Shown piece after piece: positions 13,490-51,023 of a DNA stretch of 55,195 nucleotides. Made by a program: the position numbers and the translations under genes. The notes beneath the pieces are model-generated. The model was not told the origin of the DNA. It worked only from the letters and a program-made list of their open reading frames with translations, and made no database searches. Source of the DNA: a virus (lineage: Duplodnaviria; Caudoviricetes); IMG/VR virus record IMGVR_UViG_3300032323_002612, positions 1 to 55,195 of that record. One strand, 5' to 3'. Within the stretch, counting starts at the first letter, position 1; the number at the start of each line of letters is the position of its first letter.

Positions 13490-13720
13490 TTAACCACCAT
13501 AATGTTTGATAACTGTGTTCAATGCTTCAATCATGCGAGTGTTGATAGCAACATCTTCTGGATGCAGCCAATAGCCATCAGGATTGGTATCTGTGCGTGG
13601 ATTCTTTTTCCACTCACTCAACTCTTTCTTGAGATAGGCTCGTTGTTCTTTCAAATTCAGCACAGTGATGCGATCGGCGGCCTCGCCGTCTAGTGTGATA
13701 GGCCCAACTCGTTTGCTCAC
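13490..13720 (-). CDS. Hypothetical protein
   Basis: 76-aa ORF, GTG start coupled to the ligase stop. Confidence 0.6.
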   Translation of the reverse strand: MSKRVGPITLDGEAADRITVLNLKEQRAYLKKELSEWKKNPRTDTNPDGYWLHPEDVAINTRMIEALNTVIKHYGG

Positions 13721-15093
13721 AGTTTTTCTCCTGGTTCAAATCCACGGAATCGTTTGTGACGAGGGAACCTCAGTGAGTATGTTCCGTCTTGGTTTTGCGT
13801 AACTGCATCAGCTTCAACTTCGCCGATGACACCAAGTAACTGATCCCGTGCGGCCCAAAACTCATCACGATCGCCATCGCTATAACCAGTACCAACATTA
13901 ACCCGAATATTGCGTCCATTGTCAACTCCTTCGTAAATTATAGCACCCAACCGGCCCTCATTGCGACCAGTACCTTCTTCAAAACCCACAATGGTCAAGT
14001 CCACAGTGATAGTGGGTTTCCATTTCATCCAACTATCACTACGCTTGCAGAGATAGGGTGCATCCAGATCCTTGATCATAATGCCTTCATAGCCCTGTTC
14101 CACTGATGCTTCAGCGAATCGACGCATGATGTCATGCCCTTCTGCTGTGTCCAGGTCTACATCCATGCCCGGCATAATACGCAGGTTAGCAGTCTCTTCC
14201 AAGGCAGATTTGGCACTGTCAAGCCACTCCAACCTTTTGTGCTGTTGCACATTCCAATGGCCTTCTTTGAGTGCGTCCAAGGGCAACACATCAAAAATGT
14301 GATACACCATGTTGCTAGTTTCAGCATCACTCTTGCGGTGTGCCTGCTTCATGAGCTTTTGAAAGCTTTCGCCCACAATCTCGCCGTCTAGCACAAACTG
14401 GCCACCAGTACCACGACCGTATTGAAACGCCTTACGGTTGTCTTCAATGGCTTCGGCAATCTGCGGGAAGTTTTCAAACACCTTGCCATTACGGCTGTAC
14501 AGTGTGCAAACATCGCCTTGTACCACAGCCACCACACGAACACCATCCAGTTTGACCTCTAGACGCTTGATGCCCTTCATTTTTTTGGGCTGTCCAGCAC
14601 TGTCCTGAGCCAACTGTACACTGAACACTGGAATCTTCCACTCTGTGTTGCCCACAACTTTGTTGATGGTTTTTTCAGAGATACCGCAACGCAGATCCTT
14701 GATGATTACTCTGCGGGCCAGGTTGTTCCATTCGTCCGAGTCAAACTGTTCGGCCACTTCTTGAATACGGTCACGGGCACGATGTCCTGTGATACCACGG
14801 GTGCGTAGATTTTCCAGCAAGGCCCAGAACACTGGCCAAGGATTGTCGCGGCCAGTCAGCCCCGACGTCTCTGGCACTTGCCTGACGTTGAATGTGTAGA
14901 AAGGATTGTAGGCCTGATAGCAGTTGAACAAGAAAATCTGTGCGTCACTACTGCCCAGTTTTGCAGCCATCAAGGCTTTTTCGATTGTTTTTTCTTTGTG
15001 AATTCTACTGTCCGAGCTTTCAAGATCGCGGATCCATCCTGCGGCCATTACACCCTCAAACCGGTTGTCGCTGAAGTCAATTTCATTAATCAT
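13717..15093 (-). CDS. ATP-dependent DNA ligase
   Basis: EVKLDGVR (motif I), LDGEI, EGIMIKD, WMKWK and SLRFP; start at ATG 15093. Confidence 0.93.
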   Translation of the reverse strand: MINEIDFSDNRFEGVMAAGWIRDLESSDSRIHKEKTIEKALMAAKLGSSDAQIFLFNCYQAYNPFYTFNVRQVPETSGLTGRDNPWPVFWALLENLRTRGITGHRARDRIQEVAEQFDSDEWNNLARRVIIKDLRCGISEKTINKVVGNTEWKIPVFSVQLAQDSAGQPKKMKGIKRLEVKLDGVRVVAVVQGDVCTLYSRNGKVFENFPQIAEAIEDNRKAFQYGRGTGGQFVLDGEIVGESFQKLMKQAHRKSDAETSNMVYHIFDVLPLDALKEGHWNVQQHKRLEWLDSAKSALEETANLRIMPGMDVDLDTAEGHDIMRRFAEASVEQGYEGIMIKDLDAPYLCKRSDSWMKWKPTITVDLTIVGFEEGTGRNEGRLGAIIYEGVDNGRNIRVNVGTGYSDGDRDEFWAARDQLLGVIGEVEADAVTQNQDGTYSLRFPRHKRFRGFEPGEKL

Positions 15094-15103
15094 ATTTACG
15101 CTT

Positions 15104-15511
15104 TCACCATGAACTATTGTAGAACACTTTGAGTCCCAGGAACAACTCGGCACGAGCATTCTTGATAAACTCCAGGTCAATTTGTCGATAGTATTCGTCA
15201 GCGGCTTCGCCAAAGAAAAATCCTGTTGTGCCTGGCAACTGTCCATGCGTTACTGCCAGTTCCAGTGCATCAAGATCCTGCCAGGTCAACTCCAGCTCGT
15301 CGCCATTGAAGCCACCTTTGTTGCCTTTTGATTCCCAAAGGTCTCGCATCCAACCATGCAGGTTGGGATGTTTGCGCCAGTAGGCAAGTTCACGGGGTTT
15401 GGTCTTGCCGGGCACAGTCCACTCACCGTCTTCGTAGGCCCCGGGTGCGGCATAGTATTCGTCATATTCGCCAGCCTTAGCGGCCACGTATGCATACATA
15501 TCCAGTCCCAT
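15104..15511 (-). CDS. Hypothetical phage protein (GLDMY...YWRKHPNLHGWM)
   Basis: 135-aa ORF with a motif pattern I recognise from phage hypothetical proteins. Confidence 0.75.
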   Translation of the reverse strand: MGLDMYAYVAAKAGEYDEYYAAPGAYEDGEWTVPGKTKPRELAYWRKHPNLHGWMRDLWESKGNKGGFNGDELELTWQDLDALELAVTHGQLPGTTGFFFGEAADEYYRQIDLEFIKNARAELFLGLKVFYNSSW

Positions 15512-15869: not shown

Positions 15870-16154
15870 TTACATGCTCCAATAAGTTTCGCTGGCAGGG
15901 TTGCAACACCAGGGAGTGTCGCGGTCAATTTGGACATCTGCACCGGTTATCAAGTTCTTGACAGTGACCATTGTGGGCAGAAACTCAATGCGGTAGCCTC
16001 GGCTTGTGGGCCACATTTCGTATTGCAATTCACGGACTTCACGATGCATCTCGGCTGCGTCACGATTTCGCCAAACACTAGTGCTGACCAGGCGTTCACC
16101 ACTCTTGGTACGACGATCTGCTTTGTAGATGTACATGGTGTGATCTTGTTTCAT
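15870..16154 (-). CDS. Hypothetical early protein (ends TPWCCNPASETYWSM)
   Basis: AAGGAG SD before ATG 16154; the track's upstream extension crosses a promoter and terminator. Confidence 0.75.
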   Translation of the reverse strand: MKQDHTMYIYKADRRTKSGERLVSTSVWRNRDAAEMHREVRELQYEMWPTSRGYRIEFLPTMVTVKNLITGADVQIDRDTPWCCNPASETYWSM

Positions 16155-21354: not shown

Positions 21355-23670
21355 TTATAGTTTGCAGCTTTCGCAATCTTCTTGATCGTCAAAGTTGATT
21401 GCTTCCAACGGAGTTTCAGTTTCTACCTGTTTTGAACCTTGCTTGTTGATTAGGCTGTAGTAGAATGTTTTCAGCCCCCACATGTGTGCCTGCATCAAGT
21501 TCTTGGCAATCAAGGTAGTAGGCACTTTGCGACCTTCAAAGTGTGCAGGATTGTAGAAAGTGTTGGTGGAGATTGACTGATCCACATAGGCCGCCAACAC
21601 CGCCGCAGTTTTTAAATAACCGTCGCAGTCCTTTTGTGCCCACATCAGTTGATACTTGTTCTTGAGTTTGTGATACTCAGGTACAACCTGTGTCAGGCTA
21701 CCAGCCTTGCTTTCTTTGACACTGATAAGGCTCATGGGCATTTCAATGCCGTTGGTTGAGTTGATTACCACTGAGCTAGATTCCACAGGTGCAATGGCCA
21801 TTGTGGTAGCGTTGCGAACGCCATGCCCACGCATTTGAGCACGTAAGCCTTCCCAGTTCAGCTCAGGAGCAAAGTTGGTTAACTCGTTGACTCCTTTGGC
21901 ACGCAGTTCCCAGGGAAACACACCCTTGCCGTATCGAGTTTGGTCTGATCCTGCACAGCGGCCACGCTCCTTGGCCAGTTCCACACTCATCTCAGTGAGA
22001 TAATATGCTTGATGTTCCATCCATGACTTGACTTCTGCCAGTGCATCCTTTTCGCCGTACTGCAAGCCACGCTTGGCATGCCAGTAGGCCAGGTTGGTGA
22101 TACCAATACCCAGGGGGCGAATTTCATCATTGCTTAACTTGCTTTGAATACTCAAAAAGTCCTGGTAATCAAGTATATTGTTGAGACTGCGGTGAAGAAT
22201 ACGGCAAGCCCTACGCATATCTTCTGGGTTACGGAAAGCTCCCCAGTTGATACTGCCCAATGTGCATAGTGCAATGCGACCATCAGGATCATCGAGACGT
22301 TTAAAAGGTTTAGTAGGGAGTAGAATTTCACAGCAAAGGTTACTCTGGTAAATGGTATGATACTCAGGATCAAACGGGCCCTGGTTCATGACGTTGTCTA
22401 TAAACACAAGATAGATACGTCCTGTGTCTGTTCGCTCTTTCAAAATGCCGCCTTTGAATACTTCTTCAGCTGACATTACTTTTTTTCTCAAATCTCGACG
22501 AGATTCGTACTTGACATAAAGTTCTTCAAACAAGGCAGTATCTTGATAGAAGGCTTCGTATAGATCCGGCACTTCGTTAGGGTCAAAGAACGTGATGTTC
22601 TCTTTGTTTTTAAATCGACGCCAGAAAAAAGCACTAAGCACCACCCCATAGTCCATGTGTCGGACACGGGTTTCTTCGGTTCCTTGATTGTTCTTGAGCA
22701 CAATAAGGTCATCGAACTGATGATGCCAAATGGGATAGAAAACAGTTGCACTAGCATTGCGAATGCCTCCTTGACTACAACTACGCAGGTCACCAAACCA
22801 CTTCTTCAAGAAAGGAACCATGCCAGTGTGTTGTATTTCGCCACCACGAATAGGCGAACCTAGGCTACGCAGTCTGCCAATCTCTAAACCAATGCCAGCA
22901 CGTTTGCTAGCATACTTGGCCATCATCTCTCCACTAGCAAAAATACTATCCAGATCATCATCACTGCGAATAAGAACGCAACTACTGAACTGCTTAGTAG
23001 GAGTCCCAAGCCCAGCAAGCACAGGAGTAGCAAGAGTAAATAGGCCATCACTAGCCGCATTGTAGTATTCCTTTATGTAACGCATGCGAGCACTGTTGGG
23101 TTCTTCTGCGTGAAACACAGTGGCTGCTGCAACCATGTATCGTACCTGTGGTGTCTCGTACATTTCTTTGGTTGAACGATTCTTGACCAGGTACTTTTCA
23201 ATCAGTTGCTCAATGGCAGCATAACTGTATTGCTCGTCTTTGGCATGATCCATCATGTCGTTCATACGGTTCCAGTCAGCCTCATCGTACCATTCCAAGA
23301 GTTCAGGAGTGTACAGGCCTGTGGCCACATTACGCTTCACAATTTCATACAAGTGGGGAGGCTCGTAGCTGCCGTAAACGTCTTTACGCAACATGCTGAC
23401 TCGTTGTTTCCCAGCTACATATTGGTAATTGGTGTGTCCTACATCAGGGTTGGCTTCAACGTCAATCAAGTCCACAATGGCTCGCAAGGTAATTTCGTCA
23501 ATTTCTTTGGTGGTGATCCCATCATAAAAATGTAGTTGGGCTTTGATCTCTACCATGCTTTGACTAACATCTGCAATGCCTGTGCATATTTTGGCAATTT
23601 GTGTCTGCCACTTTTCTAAGGCCAAGGGTTCACGCTGGCCACTGCGTTTAACGACGGTGATAATTTTCAT
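21355..23670 (-). CDS. nrdA: Ribonucleotide reductase class Ia alpha subunit
   Basis: ATP cone (VVKRSG), QFSSC, SNLCCEI, LKTFYY and C-terminal CESCKL. Confidence 0.96.
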   Translation of the reverse strand: MKIITVVKRSGQREPLALEKWQTQIAKICTGIADVSQSMVEIKAQLHFYDGITTKEIDEITLRAIVDLIDVEANPDVGHTNYQYVAGKQRVSMLRKDVYGSYEPPHLYEIVKRNVATGLYTPELLEWYDEADWNRMNDMMDHAKDEQYSYAAIEQLIEKYLVKNRSTKEMYETPQVRYMVAAATVFHAEEPNSARMRYIKEYYNAASDGLFTLATPVLAGLGTPTKQFSSCVLIRSDDDLDSIFASGEMMAKYASKRAGIGLEIGRLRSLGSPIRGGEIQHTGMVPFLKKWFGDLRSCSQGGIRNASATVFYPIWHHQFDDLIVLKNNQGTEETRVRHMDYGVVLSAFFWRRFKNKENITFFDPNEVPDLYEAFYQDTALFEELYVKYESRRDLRKKVMSAEEVFKGGILKERTDTGRIYLVFIDNVMNQGPFDPEYHTIYQSNLCCEILLPTKPFKRLDDPDGRIALCTLGSINWGAFRNPEDMRRACRILHRSLNNILDYQDFLSIQSKLSNDEIRPLGIGITNLAYWHAKRGLQYGEKDALAEVKSWMEHQAYYLTEMSVELAKERGRCAGSDQTRYGKGVFPWELRAKGVNELTNFAPELNWEGLRAQMRGHGVRNATTMAIAPVESSSVVINSTNGIEMPMSLISVKESKAGSLTQVVPEYHKLKNKYQLMWAQKDCDGYLKTAAVLAAYVDQSISTNTFYNPAHFEGRKVPTTLIAKNLMQAHMWGLKTFYYSLINKQGSKQVETETPLEAINFDDQEDCESCKL

Positions 23671-25900: not shown

Positions 25901-26617
25901 TTACATATTTAGCATGTAGTACTGCTCAACTCGGTGCCACCAAAGACTGCGATATTTTTCAAACTCTGCACCCTCCAGCACAAATTCTTGATATTGTGGG
26001 GGTTTAATGATGTTGAATTGTTCGTCTACGTCGGGTTTGACGCACATCAAGATCACGCCTTTGCGAATCTGTGTCCCGTGCAGTTCATTGTGTGCTTCAG
26101 CATAGGCACACAGTTGCAAAAAGTAATCTTCAATGTACTCGCGTTTTTTGGGCTTGTTGCTTTGCTTGTAGTCAAGAATAGCTTCCTGATTCAAGTGTAT
26201 GCCTGCACCGTCGGTGGTGCCTGCGTACACAGCAGGAAAATACAGCGGAACCTCAATGCCCCAAAATTCATTGACGTTGCACAGGCCTTTGGTGACCACT
26301 TCGTGTGCCATGGCATGACTGGCCCATGAATAAGGATTAGTGGTACGTTCCTTGATTGCACCATGCTTGACATAGTCTTCAAGGTAAGTGTGCATGCGGG
26401 TGCCGCGATTGGCTGCTTCTGTAGTGATCTGCTGTGCCCGAGCTTCACCTACAGATTTTCTCCAATTGGCCAGGGCAATACGACTCTCTGCGGGTTTGGT
26501 TTTGTCCAGTATGGTGGTTACACTGGGTAGTTTGTTGCCATCGGGTGTGGCATAAAATCTTTTGCCATTGACTTCCACACGAGGGATAGGTTTGTATTCA
26601 AATTTTGGGTTGTACAT
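25901..26617 (-). CDS. PD-(D/E)XK exonuclease
   Basis: LPSVTTIL, RGTRMH, YAGTTD, ILDYKQS and QLCAYA motifs. Confidence 0.85.
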   Translation of the reverse strand: MYNPKFEYKPIPRVEVNGKRFYATPDGNKLPSVTTILDKTKPAESRIALANWRKSVGEARAQQITTEAANRGTRMHTYLEDYVKHGAIKERTTNPYSWASHAMAHEVVTKGLCNVNEFWGIEVPLYFPAVYAGTTDGAGIHLNQEAILDYKQSNKPKKREYIEDYFLQLCAYAEAHNELHGTQIRKGVILMCVKPDVDEQFNIIKPPQYQEFVLEGAEFEKYRSLWWHRVEQYYMLNM

Positions 26618-27984
26618 TATTTAAAAATCATTGCTCGTGTTAGAGCAATTGTTGGGTCAGTGTTGTGTTGTATTGTTTTAAATTTTTGTTGATCTTCTGT
26701 GGTCAGTATATTGTACAATCTTTGATTGAAAGTTGCAATGCTCAAATTAGTCTTTTGATCAAAGTATGCTGTGTGACGCAAAAACTTTTCCCACAGCTCT
26801 GGCTGCGGACGATTGTTTTCTAATTCAGCTATGGTAATATTCAAAAAGTTATACACTGCGGCCAGGTGATTGGGATATGCATCAAAGATAGGATGCAACA
26901 AACATTTTCTTAGAGATTCTGCCAGCTGCGGTCTATATTGTGTAGGCAGTGCTTGTACATCCAGATGATTGGTTTGCATGGTCAAATTGGCCACAAAGTT
27001 ATGAAACACAATGCCATGACTACGGTACCATTGATACCAGTACTCCAGCCAGTCATCTATATAAAAAATATTGTTGAGGCTAAACACAGGGCTCACTGCA
27101 CACTTCCATCTAGGCACAGAAGTTTTGCGACCGTTTTTTACAGTCAAACTTGGTCGGAATGTGATCAATGATTCAAGGTTGTCTTCTACCTTTGAAAATC
27201 GTGCTGGCCATCGTACATACTGATAATTTTGACCCACACTGTCAATACTGAGATTTATGTCTACACTGGCAAATTTTGTCAACAACTCCAGTAGCTCAGT
27301 CGACGGGTTCACAGTCATTGCTGTAGTAAGTCTGATATTGACACGAGATGCAATATCTTGATCAACCATCCATCGCAATAGTTTGCTCATGCCCGGTTGT
27401 ATCAGTGTTTCGCCACCAATGAAATGCACAAAAAAATATTCAGCCTTGTCAATCAATGCTGGAATTTGAGAAGTGATTCTGCTCCAATGCTCTGCGTCCT
27501 CGCTGATATCATTTTCGTAAAATTCACTGACCACTGCATTTGTGAGTTTGGCAAACGTGCTGCTTTCAAATGGGGTACAACTACGACATGCAAGTCCACA
27601 AAAATTGCTGAATTTGATTCGAAATTCAAATTCTCTGATCTCTTGAGTTTCGGTAAACAATTCAAAACGATCTTGTGGTAATTCTGCAAATGCTCTTAAA
27701 CGTTCACTTTGCCCACCGTTGGCTTCTTCTTTCCAGCATCGATAGCAAGCAGACGGCCACTCTCCTTCAAGCTGTTGTTGTTTGATTTCAGCAAACACAT
27801 CTGTTCCTGCTGCAGGAACAAACAATGACTCGTCTAGATTACAACAACAAGTTTGATACACTGGTTGTTTTTTGTCGTCGCTGTGTCGTATGTCAATTGT
27901 GGTGTAAGGTGCTGGACATAACGTAGGATGGTTCAACGCCCATTTCATACGCTTGGACATTTGATCCTGTACTTGTTCTATCAT
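26617..27984 (-). CDS. Radical SAM protein with N-terminal SPASM/twitch-like Cys cluster
   Basis: CGLACRSC (CxxxCxxC), GGETL, SIDSVG and YVRWP motifs. Confidence 0.85.
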   Translation of the reverse strand: MIEQVQDQMSKRMKWALNHPTLCPAPYTTIDIRHSDDKKQPVYQTCCCNLDESLFVPAAGTDVFAEIKQQQLEGEWPSACYRCWKEEANGGQSERLRAFAELPQDRFELFTETQEIREFEFRIKFSNFCGLACRSCTPFESSTFAKLTNAVVSEFYENDISEDAEHWSRITSQIPALIDKAEYFFVHFIGGETLIQPGMSKLLRWMVDQDIASRVNIRLTTAMTVNPSTELLELLTKFASVDINLSIDSVGQNYQYVRWPARFSKVEDNLESLITFRPSLTVKNGRKTSVPRWKCAVSPVFSLNNIFYIDDWLEYWYQWYRSHGIVFHNFVANLTMQTNHLDVQALPTQYRPQLAESLRKCLLHPIFDAYPNHLAAVYNFLNITIAELENNRPQPELWEKFLRHTAYFDQKTNLSIATFNQRLYNILTTEDQQKFKTIQHNTDPTIALTRAMIFK

Positions 27985-37152: not shown

Positions 37153-38106
37153 ATGACCAGTCAAATCAACCCCCAAGACATCAACGGCAACTATCCAGTT
37201 GCTGGGCAACCCAACAACACCAAAGGGTTTCGTGATAATTTTACCAATACCAAAACCAACTTTGAGTATGCGGCCAACGAGATCACCGAATTACAAAACA
37301 AAGCTGTGCTCAAGCAAGCATTGACTGGTGGTACTTTGGACAACAACATGAATGATGCCTTGCTCTATGCAGCCAAGATACAAGATTTTAGTGCAACGTC
37401 GGTGCAGATTGCAACCACTTCGGGCTTGGTCAACATTGACTATACTGCTGGTCATTATCAGCGTGTGAGTACCACAGGCAGTATCAATTTGGGTTTCTCT
37501 AATTGGCCTGCCAACAACTCAGCTGGTTGGGTCCGCGTGGTCATCAACATTACTAGCACTGCTCACACAGTAACTCTGCCCGCTGAAGTAAGTGTGGGTA
37601 CCACTGGTATTCAGGGTCTAGCAGGCACTGTGATCACATTTGCTGCCACTGGCACATACAGTTTTGAGTTTGTGAGTTATGACAGCGGAGCAACTATTAC
37701 CATCCAAGACCTTAGTCGTCCACTGAACCGTTATACCAACGGAGTGACTTCTAATTCTGCCACAGCAGGCATTGGATATGCCACAGGTGCTGGAGGTGCT
37801 GTAACTCAATTGACCAGCAAAAGTACTGGTGTTACCCTAAACAGAGTGTCGGGACAAATTACCATGAACAATGCGTCGTTGGCCGCGGCTGCAGAAGTCA
37901 GCTTTACACTGACCAACAGCACCATTGCTGCCACTGACGTAGTTTATACCTGCATTGGATCTGGTGCCACCGCTGGTGCTTACAACACACAGGTAGATGC
38001 TGTGGCCGACGGCAGTTGCAGAATTGGAGTGGGCAACAAAAGCACCGGCCCTCTCAGCGAAGCCATTGTGTTGAACTTTGTTGTGATCAAGGCGGTAGCC
38101 GGCTAA
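37153..38106 (+). CDS. Putative virion structural (tail-associated) protein
   Basis: YPVAGQPNNTKGFRDNF N-terminus, T/G/S-rich; TAAATA and AAGGA upstream. Confidence 0.65.
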   Translation: MTSQINPQDINGNYPVAGQPNNTKGFRDNFTNTKTNFEYAANEITELQNKAVLKQALTGGTLDNNMNDALLYAAKIQDFSATSVQIATTSGLVNIDYTAGHYQRVSTTGSINLGFSNWPANNSAGWVRVVINITSTAHTVTLPAEVSVGTTGIQGLAGTVITFAATGTYSFEFVSYDSGATITIQDLSRPLNRYTNGVTSNSATAGIGYATGAGGAVTQLTSKSTGVTLNRVSGQITMNNASLAAAAEVSFTLTNSTIAATDVVYTCIGSGATAGAYNTQVDAVADGSCRIGVGNKSTGPLSEAIVLNFVVIKAVAG

Positions 38107-39283
38107 TCATCTCTGCCAGTTCATGAAACGTCAAAGCTAGATCTTGTTGTCGCAACAGGTCTAGCTTTTTTGTTGACTCCAAGAACTTGGTCCACAGTTG
38201 AGGTTGATTGCTCAATGGCATATCCATGAAATCCAAGATGCTGGTGATTTGCCAATTAGGCGAACTTGCTTCTAATTTGGCTCGCACTTGTTGTTTGATA
38301 ACATCGGGCATGGCTCGCACATTGAGATATTGAGGATGGTGCACCATGTTGTAAAACACAGGAATACTGCGAGCACAAAAATATTCTTGTAGTTCTATGA
38401 CCTGCAACACATTCAAAACACACACTGTGATGCAAACATGCATGCGAATGTTGTTGTGATTGCGAACAAGATTCTGATAGCGAGCAAGATTTTGTTCCAC
38501 TGTACTCCAGGTTTCACCATAGCGTATGTAATCATAATGTGCACCAATACCGTCAATGCTGACATCAATTACTACACTTTTGAATTGAGCAAGAATGTCA
38601 ATGTAGTCTTGATTCCATACTGTGCAATTGGTGTTGATGTGTATGCTTTGCTGTGCCGCTCGTCCTGACTCCACACTTTTTTGTAGAATCACAAACACAT
38701 TGTCCAACAGCATAGGTTCTGCACCATAGATATCGTAGTACTCTACATCAGTGAACCAAGTTTCTAGGTCAGACCATAGCTGTGTGTTGTCCCGATCATA
38801 GCTGGTGCGTATTCGACGCCATCTTTCGAGATATTTGCGATAATCAGGTTCCTGTTCACGTGCTTCAACTTCCCAGTAGTCCCGATACCATTTGCTTGAC
38901 ACCTCGGGCCAGCATGTTCTGCAGGCCAAGTTACAGGTGTTACCGGGCTTGAGATCTACCAGCTGTGGACGTTCAGGATTGACTGTGATATCGGCAAACT
39001 GTCGGTTGGCCTCAGTGCGACGGCTTGTACGGCCAGCACTTTCTTCATTCCAACATGCACTGCAATTTGGATGCTGAATGCCAGCTTCGAGATCTGCTTG
39101 AATTTGTTTTCGAGTAGGACTATTCCAGGCCTGTTCAATGGTGCCTGTGTCTAGATATATTTCTTGCCCTGACTCATCTTGCAAGTAGGTTTGGCTGTGG
39201 CAGCACAGCAAACATCGTCCCGAATTGTGTAATGCTAGGCCTGTGTCAGCCCAAGCACAATACAAATTTTTGCCTTTTTCCAT
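38087..39283 (-). CDS. Radical SAM protein with twitch/SPASM-like N-terminal domain
   Basis: YCAW...LLCC...CSACW, CNLACRTC, GAEP, SIDG and YIRYG motifs. Confidence 0.88.
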   Translation of the reverse strand: MEKGKNLYCAWADTGLALHNSGRCLLCCHSQTYLQDESGQEIYLDTGTIEQAWNSPTRKQIQADLEAGIQHPNCSACWNEESAGRTSRRTEANRQFADITVNPERPQLVDLKPGNTCNLACRTCWPEVSSKWYRDYWEVEAREQEPDYRKYLERWRRIRTSYDRDNTQLWSDLETWFTDVEYYDIYGAEPMLLDNVFVILQKSVESGRAAQQSIHINTNCTVWNQDYIDILAQFKSVVIDVSIDGIGAHYDYIRYGETWSTVEQNLARYQNLVRNHNNIRMHVCITVCVLNVLQVIELQEYFCARSIPVFYNMVHHPQYLNVRAMPDVIKQQVRAKLEASSPNWQITSILDFMDMPLSNQPQLWTKFLESTKKLDLLRQQDLALTFHELAEMISRLPP

Positions 39284-39964: not shown

Positions 39965-41410
39965 TTACCCTGCCTTGATCTTGCCCAACATCTGTTTTAG
40001 TTTGGAACTTTGAACGTCTGCTGACACTTTGGGAGTGTCTGCGTATCTGCCTTGAGTGCTGGCAGCTGGTTCCCATGGAGCGGTGCTGTCTGTGTCGGCA
40101 TCAGCAGCCTTGACCTGACTACGGGCCTTGATACTTTCCATGATGTTGCTTTGAGACTTGTTGTATCCGCCTTCGTCCCCACCTTCATCAGTAATGCGCA
40201 TAGTTTCAATGTTGTACTCCAAATCAATTTTTTGACCAACGCCGGTCGAGCTTCGAGACTTCATACATTGTATTTGATACTTGCCACGCTCTTTCATAGC
40301 ACGACTTGTAAAGATACCAAATACGTTGTCAGCAGTGTTGATCTTTGAAATACCACCTGAAATGTGGCTGTGATCAAATTCAATTTCTTCCACTGCTGAT
40401 CGATTCAACTGTGATGCTGTTACCAGCAACACACCCAGCTCTTTGGCCAAGTTTCGTAGTTCTTCTGAAACATACTTGTCTTTCACAAACAAGTCGTTGG
40501 GACTGACCTTTGCACTCACCGGCATCAACAAGTCCAAGTAGTCTACCATAATAAAGTCTACTTTGATACCAGTTTGAATTTGTACTTCTTTGATGTAACT
40601 GCGAATGTCGTTGATGTTGCTTTGTGCCGGCAGGGCCTTGACTCTGTACTTGCCTGCTGTACGTCCTGTCATTTTGACCTTGAGCTCTGCTGAATCAATG
40701 TCCTTGCGAATCGCTTTGGTACTCATGCTGGTCAACATAGCGTCAGTTCGCAAACTGGTAAGTTCCTCACTCAATTCCAAACTGATATACACACCGCTGA
40801 GTCCTTGTTGCAACCAGTTTAGAGCAATGTTCATCATCACAAGCGATTTACCTGAGCCCGAGCCACCTGCAAAAATGTTGAGTTCACCTCTACTGAATCC
40901 ACCATAAAGCAGTTTGTCCAGTTGTGGCCAACCTGTTGATACTTGTCCACCTGAGTTGAAATATCGGTTGATACGAGCTGCAGGATCAGCAAAGTAGTCT
41001 GTGCCCATGTCCTTAGTCAGTGATATTTGTACAGCATCCTTGATCAGCTTTTCCACAGGATCAAACTCGCCTTTTTCTAGCAAGTCATAAGACTTTAAAA
41101 TAGCCCTAGACAGTTCTTCTTTTTTAGTAAAACCTTCGAACTCTTCCAAAAACCAAGCTTCGTGATTATCGCCCTGTAGTTCAGGCGGCAGCTCATTGAT
41201 CTTGATTCCTGTTTCTGCTGAAATTTGTAGTCGAGTGGGTAATGTGTTGTATTTGGCAGAGTAAGTTTTAATAAATTCAGCCGCTGGTCTAATACTTTTA
41301 TCAAAGTTTTCTGGATTATAAATGTTCTGCACACGCACATAACTTTGTGCGTCAGACAACATCATCTCTAAGAATAGTTTCTGGAAATCAATTCCGTAAT
41401 CTTTTTGCAA
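39965..41410 (-). CDS. Replicative DnaB/gp41-like helicase
   Basis: GGSGSGKS, LELSE, IMVDYLDL, TASQLNR and MKSR motifs. Confidence 0.92.
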   Translation of the reverse strand: MQKDYGIDFQKLFLEMMLSDAQSYVRVQNIYNPENFDKSIRPAAEFIKTYSAKYNTLPTRLQISAETGIKINELPPELQGDNHEAWFLEEFEGFTKKEELSRAILKSYDLLEKGEFDPVEKLIKDAVQISLTKDMGTDYFADPAARINRYFNSGGQVSTGWPQLDKLLYGGFSRGELNIFAGGSGSGKSLVMMNIALNWLQQGLSGVYISLELSEELTSLRTDAMLTSMSTKAIRKDIDSAELKVKMTGRTAGKYRVKALPAQSNINDIRSYIKEVQIQTGIKVDFIMVDYLDLLMPVSAKVSPNDLFVKDKYVSEELRNLAKELGVLLVTASQLNRSAVEEIEFDHSHISGGISKINTADNVFGIFTSRAMKERGKYQIQCMKSRSSTGVGQKIDLEYNIETMRITDEGGDEGGYNKSQSNIMESIKARSQVKAADADTDSTAPWEPAASTQGRYADTPKVSADVQSSKLKQMLGKIKAG

Positions 41411-45855: not shown

Positions 45856-46090
45856 GGGATTTCTTTAGATTATACAGCACAAACAATTGATCCAGCAACT
45901 CCCGCATAGCCGGATCTGTTTCGCACATGGTCAGCACCGAATTTATTTCACTGGCATACTCACGCATGGACACACTGTTGCTGTCAGTCCAGCCAACCAT
46001 GCGTCGTTTGGTCTGACCCATTTCTCGAGCATAGATTCGATTGTCCACACGCTCGTAGATGTAGGTTGTGCCAGGAGTGAGATTACCCAT
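45848..46090 (-). CDS. Hypothetical protein
   Basis: 80 aa, translationally coupled. Confidence 0.7.
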   Translation of the reverse strand: MGNLTPGTTYIYERVDNRIYAREMGQTKRRMVGWTDSNSVSMREYASEINSVLTMCETDPAMRELLDQLFVLYNLKKSHE

Positions 46091-46425
46091 TAGTGATCTC
46101 TTTGTCCATTGAACACACAGTTAAACACCATGTTCATGTCACCATCGTTGATCACACGATGAAACGCACCATCAGGAATCAATATGATGTCGCCAGCATT
46201 GACTCTAAAACGTTGTTCGTCTACCAACATGATACCTGTGCCTTGCACAAAAAAGTAAACTTCTTCTTGTCCCACATGGCTGTGCCCACGAGTGGCTTGA
46301 CCTCGATACAGCTCTGTGCTGCTCAACACAAGACTTTTCAATGTCTTGTTGTCTTTGAGCAAGTAAGTATTGTTGTCTTTGACAACTTCTCCGCCAACAT
46401 CGTGTATAGTGTATTTGATATTCAT
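46090..46425 (-). CDS. Cupin-domain protein
   Basis: GHSH..QEEVYFF..G.G and GDIILIPDGAFHRV motifs. Confidence 0.85.
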   Translation of the reverse strand: MNIKYTIHDVGGEVVKDNNTYLLKDNKTLKSLVLSSTELYRGQATRGHSHVGQEEVYFFVQGTGIMLVDEQRFRVNAGDIILIPDGAFHRVINDGDMNMVFNCVFNGQRDH

Positions 46426-46935: not shown

Positions 46936-46964
46936 AGTGTATATGGCCGGACATCAAATGTCAA
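46936..46964 (-). promoter_or_regulatory. Promoter TTGACA-N17-TACACT, 8 nt before ATG
   Basis: Plus strand reads agtgta at 46936-46941 and tgtcaa at 46959-46964. Confidence 0.65.
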
Positions 46965-48430
46965 GCAATTTTCATCCAATCCAGTTTCTCAGCAGTGAAC
47001 GGATAGTTGGCTTCTTTGTAGAACTGTTTGCGTTTGGTCAAGTGACGCTTGGCAAACTTGCAGGTCGATGTCACGTCCCAGATCTGAACATGGTCTTTGT
47101 CTTCCGCTTTACGTATGCCACGACCAATACTCTGAATAACTCTAACAAAACTCTTGCCAGGCTCAACAAGAACCAAATTAAAAATACGGGGGATATTAAT
47201 ACCAACAGCAGCCACTCCATATGTGGCCACAATGATTTTGTCCGTTGCCTCAGCCACTTGATCATATTCATCTTGACGGTCTTTTGATTTGGTTGCTCCT
47301 GACACAAACACTGCTTTGTCACCCAAGCGGGCCACTAGTTCTGTGCCTGCTGCCACACGATCAACCAGCACTAGAGTATTGCCTGTTTCGTTGATTTGCA
47401 GAATCAACCCTGCCATGGCATCCAGCCGACCTTTTTCCTCCAGCAAGTATTTAAGCTCGCTTTGATAGTTGCTGAACTCCACATGGTCCAGCAGTTGTAC
47501 AATGTTCACATGGCATTGTGCCAACACTCCACGGTCCTGCAATTCGCTGGCACTGAGCTTGCTGATAACTGGACCCAAGCTCACCAACAGGCTTTGGCTT
47601 TCAAACTTTTCTTTGGGCACTGTGCCTGTAAGACCCCAACGAATTGGCACTCGCGACATCACGCCTGTGAGCATGGTCTTGAGTGCATCGGCTTTGGCCA
47701 TGTGTACTTCGTCCACTATGACACATACCACACCTTCCATAAAGTCCAATATGGTAAAGTCTGCTGTACCGCTGGATGTGTTTTTCATCAACACGTTGAG
47801 ACTTTGCCATGTACAAATGGTGTGCGTTTTGCCCAGCTCTTTGCGATCACCAAAGTACACGCCCACATCAAGCCCTAGATTGATGTAGTCCTTTTCGGTT
47901 TGTCGCACAAGGTCTTTGTTGGGCACAATAATGATTGAACGCCCATACTTCTGCACGTTCCAACTCAAGGCCGCTGTCATTAGAGTCTTGCCTGCACCTG
48001 TGGCCACTTCTTGAATACACTGCGGATTCTGCAAGTAGTTGTTGACAATTTCCACTTGGTAGTCACGCAACATCACAGGTTGGCCTGCCATGGGATGGCC
48101 CACAGGCCACAGTGTATGCTGGAATGTGTCTTCCCGCATGGCCTCAAACTCAAATGTATTGGAGTAGTCACGCTGATCATCTAGCTCAATGTCGTAGTCG
48201 TACTGCTCCAGGATGGGAATGATCTCGGGCAATAAGTTGATGTAGCTAGATCCGCCCAGCTGAAAGTAGGCCACTTTGCCATCCCAACGGCCCAGTCGCA
48301 CAGCAGGTTGATACCGTGCTCCAGGAATTTCATACTTGAATGTGTTGACTAGTTTTTTGCGGCAGTCAAGATCCAGGCCCTCGATCTTGATGTTTACTTC
48401 GTCTTTAATAATTATTGTTGCTTGTTTCAT
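46961..48430 (-). CDS. uvsW: UvsW-like superfamily 2 DNA helicase
   Basis: WDGKVAYF, LRDYQ, ATGAGKT, DEVH, GLTGT and QSIGRGIR motifs. Confidence 0.88.
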   Translation of the reverse strand: MKQATIIIKDEVNIKIEGLDLDCRKKLVNTFKYEIPGARYQPAVRLGRWDGKVAYFQLGGSSYINLLPEIIPILEQYDYDIELDDQRDYSNTFEFEAMREDTFQHTLWPVGHPMAGQPVMLRDYQVEIVNNYLQNPQCIQEVATGAGKTLMTAALSWNVQKYGRSIIIVPNKDLVRQTEKDYINLGLDVGVYFGDRKELGKTHTICTWQSLNVLMKNTSSGTADFTILDFMEGVVCVIVDEVHMAKADALKTMLTGVMSRVPIRWGLTGTVPKEKFESQSLLVSLGPVISKLSASELQDRGVLAQCHVNIVQLLDHVEFSNYQSELKYLLEEKGRLDAMAGLILQINETGNTLVLVDRVAAGTELVARLGDKAVFVSGATKSKDRQDEYDQVAEATDKIIVATYGVAAVGINIPRIFNLVLVEPGKSFVRVIQSIGRGIRKAEDKDHVQIWDVTSTCKFAKRHLTKRKQFYKEANYPFTAEKLDWMKIA

Positions 48431-48437
48431 ATGTTAT

Positions 48438-48466
48438 ATATTACACTGTTGCTTTCGCAAAGTCAA
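48438..48466 (-). promoter_or_regulatory. Promoter TTGACT-N17-TAATAT, 7 nt before the uvsW ATG
   Basis: Plus strand reads atatta at 48438-48443 and agtcaa at 48461-48466; no SD. Confidence 0.65.
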
Positions 48467-48495
48467 AAAAACAGGTACCTTTTTAGGGGTACCTG
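48465..48495 (-). terminator. Intrinsic terminator CAGGTACC..GGTACCTG-T7
   Basis: Minus strand caggtacccctaaaaaggtacctgttttttt. Confidence 0.85.
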
Positions 48496-48560
48496 CTGTA
48501 AAGCCTGGGCCGGAGCCAACCGTATAATGCCCAGGAAAAAAGGAATCAAAATGAACTACA
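48472..48560 (-). ncRNA. Candidate anti-RBS small RNA / 3'UTR regulator
   Basis: CCUGGGC/GCCCAGG stem with loop GGUUGGCUCC and 5' flank CAUUUUGAUUCCUUUUU, both antisense to early-gene RBSs; ends in a terminator. Confidence 0.55.
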
Positions 48561-48561
48561 T

Positions 48562-48666
48562 CTACTCTGCTACTACCACTTGAAAACCCTGTTGCTGTTG
48601 TTCGTCTGCTTCATGCTGGCTGTCTACAACGAACAAAAACAAATCACCATCCCAAATTTCAAACAT
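48562..48666 (-). CDS. Small acidic protein (34 aa)
   Basis: Manual translation MFEIWDGDLFLFVVDSQHEADEQQQQGFQVVVAE; TAAGGA SD. Confidence 0.6.
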   Translation of the reverse strand: MFEIWDGDLFLFVVDSQHEADEQQQQGFQVVVAE

Positions 48667-48674
48667 ACTGTTCC

Positions 48675-48827
48675 TTAAAGAATTGAGTTAGCGGCCGCTG
48701 CCGCGTTCCAGGCACTGAAAAAGATATTGACCCATCCCAGTTTGTTGTGGCCGTTTTCAAAGTCACGCTGGGCCCAGGTCCACAAAAGCCAAGCCGCCAA
48801 AATGTTAACGATTGTCCAAGCAGTCAT
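48675..48827 (-). CDS. Small membrane protein (50 aa)
   Basis: Manual translation MTAWTIVNILAAWLLWTWAQRDFENGHNKLGWVNIFFSAWNAAAAANSIL; ATGA overlap. Confidence 0.6.
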   Translation of the reverse strand: MTAWTIVNILAAWLLWTWAQRDFENGHNKLGWVNIFFSAWNAAAAANSIL

Positions 48828-48931
48828 GACATCACCGCAACCAAAAAGATAAAAAATGCCGCAACAGGATAACCAAACAACAAGGCCATCATGGCAAGTA
48901 TGGTGCCAAAGAAAGCCTTGTCGCTACCCAT
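48824..48931 (-). CDS. Small membrane peptide (35 aa)
   Basis: Manual translation MGSDKAFFGTILAMMALLFGYPVAAFFIFLVAVMS; TGATG coupling. Confidence 0.6.
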   Translation of the reverse strand: MGSDKAFFGTILAMMALLFGYPVAAFFIFLVAVMS

Positions 48932-49173
48932 CACATGCCACCATTCTTCAACAAGTGCATTGTGACATCCGCTGCCGGCACTTGCACCATTTCCCGGCTG
49001 TACTTTTGCACAGGTCGGGATGTTTTGCTGGCTGGATAGATCTTGATCTTTACATAACCATGATCCGAAGGTGTTGGGCGACCCAATGCAGTGACTTGAT
49101 AAAGATTGGCGTAGAACACCACAAAGTCACCCACTGCAAGATTGCGACCCAACATATCCTTCATATCAAGCAC
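48931..49173 (-). CDS. Hypothetical protein
   Basis: KDMLGRNLAVGDFVV pattern; coupled to its neighbours. Confidence 0.65.
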   Translation of the reverse strand: MLDMKDMLGRNLAVGDFVVFYANLYQVTALGRPTPSDHGYVKIKIYPASKTSRPVQKYSREMVQVPAADVTMHLLKNGGM

Positions 49174-50185
49174 TCTTCATGCAAGTTGTTTCTGCCAGTC
49201 GCTTCCAGTTCAGCACACTCATCTTGCGAAGATCTGCAATCTTGATTGCCATACGCAGGCTCACTTCACGCAGGCGATTCTGGTTGGCGTCCATGAAGTC
49301 AATGATGTCGTCTTGAACTTCTGGAGCAAAGTCATAGTCTGCAAACAACACACCGTCTTTGGCAATCTGCTTGATACGCAACAGTTTGTCACGCATGGTG
49401 TCCAGGGTCAAGTCCAGGTAGTGGCAACGGCTTTGCAGTGCATCCAAGTGATCCCGCAGTTTCTGCGACTTCATCTTGTCAAACTTCAAGTTGGTGATAA
49501 AGATGGCACTACCTTTGAACTCAAAACTGTCTGGAATGCCTTCGCGACGCAGGCTGCTGGATTCGCTCAACCAGGAGATCTTGCGCTTCTTGCCAGAGTC
49601 CAGGGCACCTTTCAGCAAGTTCAGTGCAACGTCATCCAGCAAGATGCTGTCGCAGTCGTCAAACACAACCACGCAGTTAGAGTCTGAATACTTGTAGAGA
49701 GTTTGGTACAGGCCGATGGGAGTTGCTGAGCCTTTGACAACTTCGGCACGCAGTCGCTTGCCAGCCAGTTTGTCAAACATAGTGGCCTTGTCAATTTCTT
49801 GCTCAACGCCAAAGCTCTTGCCCACGCCAGGAGGGCCGCTCACAATCATGGCACGGATGTCGCCACTCACAGTGGCCTTGGTCATTTCGTGCAGGATGTC
49901 AAAACGCTCACGGATACGATCCATGGCTTGTTCATCAGTTTCTGCGGCACGGGTGGGTTCTGGTACTGCGGTAGGTTCTGTAGTCATGCCGTTAGTGTAC
50001 TCGATATCTGCGATGTTGTCAACACGAATACGGATAGTGTCGGGGCACTTGGGGAAATGTCCAGAATTTTTCACTGTGACATAGCTGCCTTTGGCACCAG
50101 ATTGAAAACCAGACACCAGTTCAAATGTGGTGTTCTGAACAGTGTTGCCACGGTAGTTACCGTTAAGGACTCGAATTGCACTCAT
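49166..50185 (-). CDS. AAA+ ATPase
   Basis: GPPGVGKS (Walker A), VVVFDDCD (Walker B), FITN and ALQSRC (Arg finger). Confidence 0.85.
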   Translation of the reverse strand: MSAIRVLNGNYRGNTVQNTTFELVSGFQSGAKGSYVTVKNSGHFPKCPDTIRIRVDNIADIEYTNGMTTEPTAVPEPTRAAETDEQAMDRIRERFDILHEMTKATVSGDIRAMIVSGPPGVGKSFGVEQEIDKATMFDKLAGKRLRAEVVKGSATPIGLYQTLYKYSDSNCVVVFDDCDSILLDDVALNLLKGALDSGKKRKISWLSESSSLRREGIPDSFEFKGSAIFITNLKFDKMKSQKLRDHLDALQSRCHYLDLTLDTMRDKLLRIKQIAKDGVLFADYDFAPEVQDDIIDFMDANQNRLREVSLRMAIKIADLRKMSVLNWKRLAETTCMKSA

Positions 50186-50231
50186 GGTTGGCTCCTTTAG
50201 TGTGCGGTTGAAGTTTACTGTCTATGCTGTT

Positions 50232-50260
50232 ATTATAGCAAAATGGCGATTATTGGTCAA
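50232..50260 (-). promoter_or_regulatory. Early promoter TTGACC-N17-TATAAT
   Basis: 32-bp block (50231-50262) identical to the copy at 50417-50448. Confidence 0.85.
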
Positions 50261-50387
50261 CCATTTGTTCTGCCAGTACTTGTGGCGTAATTACAACACC
50301 ACCGTAGCATTGTTGGTACAATTCTGCAACACTTTTCAGGAAAAAAGTGTATACTTTACCATTACCAGCAATCAATGTGTACTGCAT
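50250..50387 (-). CDS. Small early protein (45 aa)
   Basis: Manual translation MQYTLIAGNGKVYTFFLKSVAELYQQCYGGVVITPQVLAEQMVDQ; AAGGA SD, between two promoters. Confidence 0.65.
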   Translation of the reverse strand: MQYTLIAGNGKVYTFFLKSVAELYQQCYGGVVITPQVLAEQMVDQ

Positions 50388-50417
50388 TATGATTCCTTTT
50401 TGCTTTGCTATACGAGT

Positions 50418-50446
50418 ATTATAGCAAAATGGCGATTATTGGTCAA
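50418..50446 (-). promoter_or_regulatory. Early promoter TTGACC-N17-TATAAT
   Basis: Minus strand ggTTGACCaataatcgccattttgcTATAAT. Confidence 0.85.
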
Positions 50447-50451
50447 CCTTT

Positions 50452-50655
50452 TTACTGCTTTTTCAGCAAATCAAAGATTTGATTTTGCAGTTCGTTGACC
50501 TGATCCAACTCAACATAAAAGTCTGTAGTAGGATCGTAGTACATTCCTTCACGAACATCATAGTACAAGACCTGCCCGTTGGGGTAGTGAAATGGGCCTT
50601 CCAAGCCTTTGCGGGGACCGTACTCTTTGGCGTTTTTAAAAACCACATAAGACAT
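50452..50655 (-). CDS. Hypothetical early protein
   Basis: GLEGPF...VLYYD..EG.YYDP.TDFY motif; AAGGAG SD. Confidence 0.75.
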   Translation of the reverse strand: MSYVVFKNAKEYGPRKGLEGPFHYPNGQVLYYDVREGMYYDPTTDFYVELDQVNELQNQIFDLLKKQ

Positions 50656-50684
50656 ATCAGCTCCTTGTTGTGTTGTATGTCCTA

Positions 50685-50713
50685 ATTATAGCAAATTGGC
50701 AAATTTTGGTCAA
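50685..50713 (-). promoter_or_regulatory. Early promoter TTGACC-N17-TATAAT
   Basis: Minus strand ggTTGACCaaaatttgccaatttgcTATAAT. Confidence 0.85.
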
Positions 50714-50988
50714 CCTAAAGAAAGTAGTACTAAAGTTAAATCTGACTCCCTGCGGAATGTGATCCAGTAGGGCCTGCCAATATCACGATCATAGCGACTG
50801 TTTCGTTCGCCGTAGTATGAATACCAGTCATGTTCACGCAACCAGCCACCGCCTTTTAATCGATCGCGACAGACTTTTTCAACCGCTCGAATTTTGTCAC
50901 TGTTCCAGCCGTTGTAAAACTTCAAGGCCACAACATGCCCATGGTCTCGGAACTGGCGGAATCTGCGATTGAGTTTGACTATTTTCAT
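50710..50988 (-). CDS. Hypothetical protein (leaderless)
   Basis: ATG 50988 lies 6 nt after TATAAT. Confidence 0.65.
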   Translation of the reverse strand: MKIVKLNRRFRQFRDHGHVVALKFYNGWNSDKIRAVEKVCRDRLKGGGWLREHDWYSYYGERNSRYDRDIGRPYWITFRRESDLTLVLLSLG

Positions 50989-50994
50989 GTGCCA

Positions 50995-51023
50995 ATTATA
51001 ACACTGACACATTTATTGGTCAA
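50995..51023 (-). promoter_or_regulatory. Promoter TTGACC-N17-TATAAT
   Basis: Plus strand reads attata at 50995-51000 and ggtcaa at 51018-51023. Confidence 0.8.

Follow-up and report, generated by a model that had tools for sequence, protein, structure and literature searches.

The 55,195-bp stretch of phage DNA analyzed here over its full length (the window; IMG/VR record IMGVR_UViG_3300032323_002612) contains a transcription unit headed by an AAA ATPase gene, and a hairpin close to the 3′ end of that unit carries a sequence complementary to the ribosome-binding site (RBS) of the same gene. Coordinates refer to the minus strand unless stated otherwise. In order of transcription, the unit comprises a sigma-70-type promoter (TTGACC-17-TGcTATAAT; 50260-50232), a short 5′ untranslated region (UTR) that would be about 40 nt long, the AAA ATPase gene (49166-50185; 339 amino acids; phrog_1250; a homologue of the T4-type NrdC.10), four small open reading frames (ORFs) of 80, 36, 50, and 34 amino acids (48562-49173), the hairpin (48504-48535), a U-rich single-stranded linker with the sequence CUUUAC (48498-48503), and an intrinsic terminator (48463-48497). 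The terminator consists of a stem-loop (48497-48470) followed by a T-run and forms the 3′ end of the AAA unit. The next promoter (TTGACT-17-TAATAT; 48438-48466) starts the following transcription unit, that of a UvsW-like helicase (46961-48430), and the TTGACT box right behind the terminator is kept in relatives. The promoter listing of the window contains no promoter-like site between the AAA gene and the hairpin.

The hairpin loop carries an exact antisense copy of the AAA RBS. Written in minus-strand letters, the hairpin reads CCTGGGC-ATTATACGGTTGGCTCCG-GCCCAGG, with a 5′ arm CCUGGGC (48535-48529), an 18-nt loop (48528-48511), and a 3′ arm GCCCAGG (48510-48504). The anti-RBS core within the loop, GGUUGGCUCC (the 10-mer GGTTGGCTCC; 48521-48512), is exactly antisense to the Shine-Dalgarno (SD) sequence plus spacer GGAGCCAACC (50195-50186), which abuts the AAA ATG at 50185. 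This 10/10 match is the sole exact site on the minus strand. A preliminary description of the window had placed a hairpin with a 7-bp stem between the last ORF and a strong terminator on this strand, with an exact 10-nt antisense of the AAA SD and spacer in its loop. We recovered the hairpin as stated and reproduced all strings and coordinates; furthermore, we find that the sequence match is co-conserved and changes jointly in relatives. Because it is either kept or compensated there, the match is far beyond chance.

For the window, the predicted duplex energy is -18.9 kcal/mol, opening of the two sites costs 1.55 and 3.22 kcal/mol, and the net is -14.1 kcal/mol. When the loop was ranked by duplex energy against 227 candidate starts, the AAA RBS came second (-21.8 kcal/mol), and first place went to an internal TTG within a 47-codon ORF. 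At its ends, the anti-RBS has two Gs and two Cs that are able to pair with each other inside the loop, while UUGGCU stays fully exposed as a nucleation site. Among the terminators of the window, the feature is confined to the AAA unit: at the three others with stems of at least 7 bp, comparison with RBSs as far as 3.5 kb upstream gave no complement longer than 6 nt. A search of 48300-48800 against Rfam 15, on both strands and at E ≤10, returned four unrelated hits (a small nucleolar RNA, SL2, and two microRNAs), all far under the gathering score.

Hairpin and terminator form an RNA structure that is conserved and covaries. Relatives that have the loop 10-mer of the window are referred to here as class A, and 50 distinct class-A sequences were aligned. 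The hairpin stem shows two-sided changes in six of its seven pairs, with 97.1% of cells paired, and the terminator stem shows them in five of eight pairs, with 98.5% of cells paired. Taken together, the two helices have 97.9% of cells paired and double changes in 11 of 15 pairs; none of 500 shuffles scored as high, and slid registers drop to 23-48% paired. RNAalifold independently predicts both helices. The loop 10-mer is invariant in all 50 sequences, and little or no variation is seen in three T columns of the linker or in the two Ts immediately 5′ of the hairpin. Other lineages have, in place of the core, blocks that complement the RBS of their own. These blocks are located either in the loop of another hairpin (with stems such as GGATTGTC/GACAATCC or TTGGAACGTC/GACGTTCCAA) or, single-stranded, directly 5′ of a hairpin. 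Hairpin types thus differ between lineages, which means that the architecture varies while the complementarity is kept.

We assembled 240 IMG/VR relatives, which together with the window make 241 sources. A first IMG/VR scan with the helicase as query yielded 80 loci, and two scans with the AAA proteins of divergent loci added a further 160. The AAA gene could be located in 221 of the 241 sources, and its RBS together with the first downstream terminator in 200, of which 146 are non-redundant. For each locus, we compared the AAA RBS (-22 to +3) with the 60 nt preceding the first downstream terminator and took the longest exact Watson-Crick complement as the score. The exact loop 10-mer GGTTGGCTCC was present in 49 of 81 sources (the 80 loci of the first scan and the window), on the helicase strand. 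In those 49 it always lies in a G+C-rich hairpin, followed by a terminator and a TTGACT promoter, and at the same loci the AAA start is GGAGCCAACC-ATG, with variable adjoining bases. Loci with other loops have other RBSs: six loci without the loop motif combine the AAA RBS aaaGGAGCTAGA with a pre-terminator hairpin loop TCTAGCTCC, and another (L052) combines the AAA start GGGCTAGTaacc-ATG with the loop ACTAGCCC.

Complementarity between the AAA RBS and the pre-terminator region is widespread among the 146 loci. The longest complement is 11 nt in 14 loci, 10 nt in 31, 9 nt in 32, 8 nt in 36, 7 nt in 22, 6 nt in 9, and 4 nt and 3 nt in one locus each. A length of 7 nt or more is thus reached in 135 loci, and one of 8 nt or more in 113. 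Among these 113, the paired block occurs as 24 distinct sequences that are changed on both sides. Examples of such RBS/anti-RBS pairs are GGAGCCAACC/GGUUGGCUCC, AGGAGCUAGA/UCUAGCUCCU, GGGCUAGAAA/UUUCUAGCCC, AGGAGCTAGA/TCTAGCTCCT, AGGAGCATTC/GAATGCTCCT, AAACAGGAGC/GCTCCTGTTT, and TGGAGCAACA/TGTTGCTCCA; other paired blocks include GGAGCCAACC(A), ACGGAGCAA, TTCTGGAGC, and TAGGAGCTAGA. The pairs GGGCTAGTAA/TTACTAGCCC and GGGCTAGAAA/TTTCTAGCCC differ by a single base that is matched on both sides. In the 135 loci, the paired block spans about -14 to +1; it is centered on the SD core, which it covers in nearly all loci, and extends up to the first base of the start codon. Its register and length shift by lineage, with some blocks extending 5′ of the SD (as the AAACAGGAGC block does) and others 3′.

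Own RBS/anti-RBS pairs are longer than swapped pairs. For 71 distinct RBS 14-mers, the mean longest complement is 8.14 nt in own pairs and 6.38 nt in swapped ones; 10,000 permutations gave 6.41 ± 0.15, and none reached the observed mean. Random 60-mers of the same locus have a mean longest complement of 4.87 nt. The result holds for 22 representatives whose RBS 14-mers have at least five differences (7.64 versus 6.04 ± 0.24 nt, with 0 of 20,000 permutations reaching the former). When mapped onto a FastTree phylogeny of the 146 AAA proteins, the paired block must have changed at least 32 times, mere length changes counted. The preliminary description had suggested related phage genomes as the place to look for covariation between the loop and early RBSs; for the AAA RBS, such covariation is seen, in 24 paired-block sequences, and the excess disappears on swapping. 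Two further data sets were neutral. Among 183 positions flanking the paired blocks, 15 are G-U and 21 are C-A or A-C, and most are A-G, which is uninformative for distinguishing RNA from DNA. Six metatranscriptome runs had matches, all with small word shares; the pieces, compared for four of these runs, are assembled contigs that are 85-95% alike and therefore come from relatives; assembled contigs are blind to transcript ends, strand, and level, and these pieces weigh neither way.

The two complementary sites lie at opposite ends of one transcription unit. In 133 of 140 non-redundant loci with enough flank, a promoter of the form TTGAY-N16-19-TAYAMT is located no more than 90 nt ahead of the AAA start. 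From the end of the -10 box to the AAA ATG, the median distance is 33 nt (range 27-53), and the AAA RBS therefore lies in a short 5′ UTR. At the other end, the anti-RBS is separated from the terminator stem by a median of 16 nt (range 0-51). In 73 of the 146 loci, the terminator stem begins within 70 nt past the AAA stop, and the mRNA looks monocistronic. In the remaining loci, insertions of additional small genes reach 2.1 kb (2106 nt), and the element has kept its place beside the terminator. The small-ORF cargo behind the AAA gene is variable and missing in half of the relatives. Two loci (L197 and L200) have a bipartite 3′ UTR, in which an anti-SD (TTAGCTCC or ATAGCTCC) is located 5′ of a hairpin with the loop TAGACATAC. 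This loop can pair with GTATGTCTA, the region around the start codon of the same gene, and the order of the blocks forbids one continuous helix.

The AAA ATPase itself is widely distributed among phages. We detected protein-level homologues in 1308 phage records, many of them T4-like. The best homologue, with 41% identity, is from the Pseudomonas jumbo phage PA5oct, and the homologous ORF of Acinetobacter phage ZZ1 is annotated nrdC.10. In the passages cited here, nrdC.10 figures as a T4-type ORF that is conserved, contains a weak AAA motif, and has no known function (PMC1524935). A sequence search of PDB gave marginal AAA+ matches only, to Lon and RuvB-like proteins (E ~0.04-0.2). At the nucleotide level, 47900-50700 had no match in 50,697 phage records. 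Among the cultured homologues, we checked three of the 1308: PA5oct has a complement of 8 nt, ZZ1 of 7 nt, and VAP7 of 6 nt, and a 3′ anti-RBS in these three is not convincing. In PA5oct (L241; MK797984.1; coding sequence at 686-1840 of the locus, annotated thioredoxin), a small hairpin lies 20 nt past the stop, and one of its arms, ATGCTACT, is complementary to the spacer AGTAGCAT of the gene's own RBS; for 8 nt, the probability of such a match by chance is a few percent.

These comparisons support the view that the loop is an anti-RBS aimed at the AAA RBS, and they show that the two sites co-evolve. Both are on one transcription unit, and the complementarity covers the SD, the spacer, and the first base of the start codon. 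On balance, we consider it probable that this 3′-UTR anti-RBS module represses translation of the NrdC.10-like AAA mRNA, primarily in cis. After transcription of the 3′ end, the exposed loop would nucleate pairing with the RBS on the same molecule. A duplex of 10-11 bp would then form and keep the 30S subunit off; the predicted block to initiation follows from the overlap at -14 to +1 and from the predicted net energy of -14.1 kcal/mol. Ribosomes would load mainly before the transcript is complete, so that the output per mRNA would be capped, a delayed self-repression of the kind put forward for icaR. The duplex may affect mRNA decay too, and a hairpin-terminator fragment that outlived the mRNA could act in trans on new AAA transcripts. 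We prefer action in cis because the two partners are always on one transcript and because half of the loci are simple monocistronic units.

Several observations weigh against this interpretation. The longest block is shorter than 7 nt in 11 of the 146 loci, and four loci (L065, L094, L159, and L230) are without a complement. A one-base bulge restores 10-13 bp in some of the loci scored 6, as computed for L090 and L092 and judged by eye for L040 and L066. In the window, the end bases of the anti-RBS pair inside the loop, and part of the seed must therefore open. Furthermore, only 25 of the 71 targets, and 8 of the 22, have the segment of their own locus as best or tied-best partner, since similar blocks are common to many lineages. 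Independent contrasts per motif number about three in the same direction, about none in the opposite direction, and one to seven one-sided (sign test p ~0.25). So few usable contrasts give this test too little power; what carries the statistical weight is the exact complementarity found in many classes rather than a tally of events. We infer the action in cis, the repression, and its timing, the repression solely from the overlap of the block with the SD, and sequence alone does not separate cis from trans.

The principal alternative is action in trans. The AAA unit lies in a region of the minus strand (51023-48463) that looks early and that contains four near-identical, strong sigma-70-type promoters (51023-50995, 50713-50685, 50446-50418, and 50260-50232). 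Two further copies are found on the same strand at 16213-16185 and 15844-15816. All six share GGTTGACC...TTTGCTATAAT with an extended -10, and behind each lies a short leader with a small gene or, in the case of 50260, the AAA ATPase. The promoter cassette, with part of the leader (ACACATAGACAG), is found again in relatives. A small RNA (sRNA) of ~70-90 nt derived from the 3′ UTR, comprising hairpin, linker, and terminator, might be cleaved from the mRNA or outlast it, build up in the course of infection, and, through seed pairing at RBSs, shut off the AAA gene, other early genes, and perhaps host mRNAs, and so act as a timer. We regard this possibility as less likely than action in cis but as a serious rival. 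The element has a U-rich tract 5′ of the hairpin, a seed in the loop, a U-rich linker, and a U-tailed terminator, an architecture that resembles chaperone-dependent sRNAs. It shares the intrinsic terminator of its parent mRNA and bears a conserved seed, as expected of a 3′-UTR-derived sRNA, and it remains beside the terminator despite the genes inserted in some relatives. Candidate 3′-UTR-derived noncoding RNAs are known from virulent Pseudomonas phages, as reported in the passages cited here (PMC10914365).

Taken alone, the additional targets in the window do not count as evidence for an sRNA. The preliminary description had the loop also pair with the RBSs of three other early genes, at 16154, 15786, and 50655. 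Each offers nine contiguous pairs with G-U allowed (8, 7, and 6 Watson-Crick pairs, respectively), and the three genes rank 4, 11, and 23 of 227 by duplex energy, which favors the sRNA; the fifth gene (50387) ranks 204. However, these sites consist of the GGAG core plus G-U pairs, and such sites are as frequent for shuffled loops: the minus strand has 30 G-U-tolerant sites of at least 9 nt, versus 27 ± 13 for 100 shuffled loops. Thus, the three extra targets could not be upheld.

Relatives provide some support for a wider regulon, in two lineages. Among distinct upstream GGAG-type RBSs, GGAGCCA accounts for 38 of 110 in class-A relatives but for only 1 of 120 in the TAGCTCC class. Other early genes of relatives bear GGAGCCAAC or GGAGCCAAA, and in the L177 lineage, a full 10-nt match, AAAACAGGAGC, is present at two or three other early RBSs. 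On the other hand, the matching GGAGCTA is found in 0 of the 120 distinct upstream GGAG-type RBSs of TAGCTCC-class relatives, and a regulon is therefore not a general property. The GGAGCCA excess may stem from duplication of promoter-UTR cassettes, and the counts lack phylogenetic independence; shared descent of such cassettes could explain both the class-A and the L177 signals. In one class-A sub-lineage (L039, L045-L051, L056, L072, and similar loci), a small hairpin TAACC-CTCCAA-GGTTA with CUCC in its loop lies ahead of the class-A hairpin, on its 5′ side; the 1.6 kb upstream contained no RBS to match it.

A second seed, which the preliminary description had placed in the 5′ flank of the hairpin (48537-48553), is real as a match in the window and is not conserved in relatives. 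At 16 of 17 positions, the flank is antisense to 50401-50385, where the RBS and start codon of a 45-amino-acid early ORF (50250-50387) lie; this ORF would be its target. Within the window, such a match is unusual: when tested against the whole strand, 1 of 300 shuffles gave one as good, and against 152 RBS windows, 0 of 1000 did. Elsewhere, comparison of the 24-nt flanks of 47 class-A loci with the 1.6 kb upstream gives longest complements of 5-9 nt, which is inside the control range (means ~6-7.7, maxima 7-12), and the window alone reaches 12. Eight distinct homologues of the 45-amino-acid gene include none with a matching RBS/flank pair, and in the closest of them (L236, which shares a contig with L007), the RBS is a different one and the flank is unrelated. 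The flank match may be a young, lineage-specific addition or a coincidence, and its lack of conservation counts against the sRNA as a two-seed regulator.

A more elaborate scenario joins action in cis with action in trans, and we put it forward as speculation that is rather unlikely to hold in full. The RBS would be open only during transcription; the finished tail would close on the head, circularize the mRNA, and stop its translation, and a freed fragment would persist as an sRNA and silence later copies and, in some lineages, sister early genes. The co-evolving RBS and anti-RBS would serve as a private address code that is different in each lineage.

We consider it improbable that the pairing of the 5′ and 3′ ends acts mainly on mRNA stability or processing, through end protection or a nuclease site, with any effect on translation being secondary. 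The comparative pairing evidence serves this explanation equally well. However, the block is centered on the SD core and, in nearly all lineages, runs up to the start codon, a position that fits a block to initiation and exceeds what end protection needs, and at 8-11 bp the duplex is a short one for RNase III. Precedents exist in bacteria: in the passages cited here, a 14-bp pairing of the 5′ UTR with the 3′ UTR of hbs modulates RNase Y cleavage (PMC5737220), and the icaR duplex is an RNase III substrate (PMC3868564).

Least probable is a DNA-level feature (inverted repeats serving as protein or recombinase sites, remnants of an inverted duplication, or a small ORF on the opposite strand): the two sites do form an inverted repeat in DNA, and plus-strand 48512-48529 does resemble an SD followed by ATG, but one copy is always at the AAA SD and the other always in or beside a covarying stem-loop before a terminator, and the shifts in block register fit RNA pairing, not a fixed protein site. 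An invertible segment was rejected, as the AAA gene is never inverted relative to the helicase among the loci of the first scan (L001-L080) that carry both. An opposite-strand ORF was also rejected: the plus-strand ATG is missing from many class-A rows (e.g., L006, L010, L014, L015, L063, and L179), and there is therefore no conserved antisense ORF. The SD-centered block, the register shifts, the absence of inverted isomers, and the lack of a conserved ATG together make the stability and DNA explanations less likely than repression of AAA translation by the 3′-UTR anti-RBS.

The closest known counterpart is the icaR mRNA of Staphylococcus aureus. Its 3′-UTR motif UCCCCUG pairs with the SD of the same mRNA, inhibits formation of the initiation complex, and yields an RNase III substrate, according to the passages cited here (PMC3868564). 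The likeness is that of a 3′-UTR anti-SD complementary to the SD of its own mRNA, and in those passages the choice between cis and trans is left open too. There, icaR is a bacterial gene with a 7-nt motif 260 nt past the stop, and it is presented as a singular example without comparative covariation (PMC3868564). The phage element, in contrast, has a block of 8-11 nt that includes gene-specific spacer bases, lies in or next to a hairpin at a median of 16 nt before the terminator, and occurs with many compensatory variants across a large group of uncultured freshwater phages, where it is known from sequence comparison. Its motifs are of the (N)GCUCC(N) or CUAGCCC type, whereas that of icaR, UCCCC(UG), is common to S. 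aureus sRNAs. The likeness to icaR is thus one of mechanism, not of descent.

Other systems share single traits with the element. Like 3′-UTR-derived sRNAs, it uses the terminator of a coding transcript and has a conserved seed and a U-rich region before the terminator hairpin; known sRNAs of this kind act on the mRNAs of other genes, whereas the universally conserved target here is the first gene of the parent transcript. C4 RNA represses by pairing at the icd ribosome-binding site and, like the phage element, is a phage RNA made from the same operon as its target. However, C4 lies upstream of its target, is processed from the transcript, and serves lysogenic immunity, while the phage element sits downstream of its target at the 3′ end, among apparent lytic early genes. 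In phages P1 and P7, C4 is described in the passages cited here as needed for full repression of ant in the c4-icd-ant operon (PMC8198154). We found no Rfam match for the element, the C4 family included. The hbs mRNA of Bacillus subtilis likewise has long-range pairing between its two UTRs, a 14-bp duplex that masks an RNase Y site in the leader and stabilizes the mRNA, as given in the passages cited here (PMC5737220); the phage duplex differs in being centered on the SD.

The mechanism class, exemplified by icaR, and sRNAs derived from 3′ ends are thus already known; what is new is a phage-borne, family-wide, covarying 3′-UTR anti-RBS module. We found no description in the literature of the element or of 3′-UTR anti-SD self-pairing in phages, with supplementary tables of noncoding RNAs (e.g., PMC10914365) outside the scope of this search.

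The window is probably a piece of a large, jumbo-type freshwater phage genome and not a complete genome. We read it as a fragment because the contigs of relatives reach ~345 kb and because of its gene content; close relatives sit on IMG/VR contigs of 200 to ~345 kb. The gene content includes the large subunit of ribonucleotide reductase, an ATP-dependent DNA ligase, a DnaB-like helicase, and two radical-SAM proteins (e.g., 21355-23670, 13717-15246, 39965-41410, 26617-27984, and 38087-39283). Two genes 3′ of the UvsW-like helicase is a cupin-domain protein (46090-46425; Pfam Cupin_2, E 6e-14), an unusual cargo in a replication module. The ATG of this helicase (48430) lies 7 nt past the -10 box TAATAT (48443-48438) and is without an SD, and the helicase start of relatives is laid out alike, with TATACT or TATAAT, 6-9 nt, and ATG; the helicase mRNA is probably leaderless. 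The first early ORF starts at ATG 50988 (in frame with 50710-51012), 6 nt past the -10 box of promoter 51023-50995 and without an SD, and its mRNA looks leaderless as well.

The significance of the element is both methodological and biological. Pairing of an SD with the 3′ UTR of its own mRNA rests on very few cases, none with broad comparative support. Here, about 150 non-redundant phage loci supply two dozen natural RBS/anti-RBS pairs at one genomic position, which makes the mechanism directly testable by swap-and-restore reporters. Further 3′-end anti-RBS modules can be found by sequence, through comparison of the pre-terminator region with the first RBS of the operon. For the phages themselves, the element is a first regulatory handle on the widespread, uncharacterized NrdC.10-like AAA ATPase of T4-like and jumbo phages, and the tight control of this ATPase suggests dosage sensitivity. 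If the scenario of a private address code is true, a lineage-specific RBS/anti-RBS code could keep co-infecting relatives from cross-regulation.

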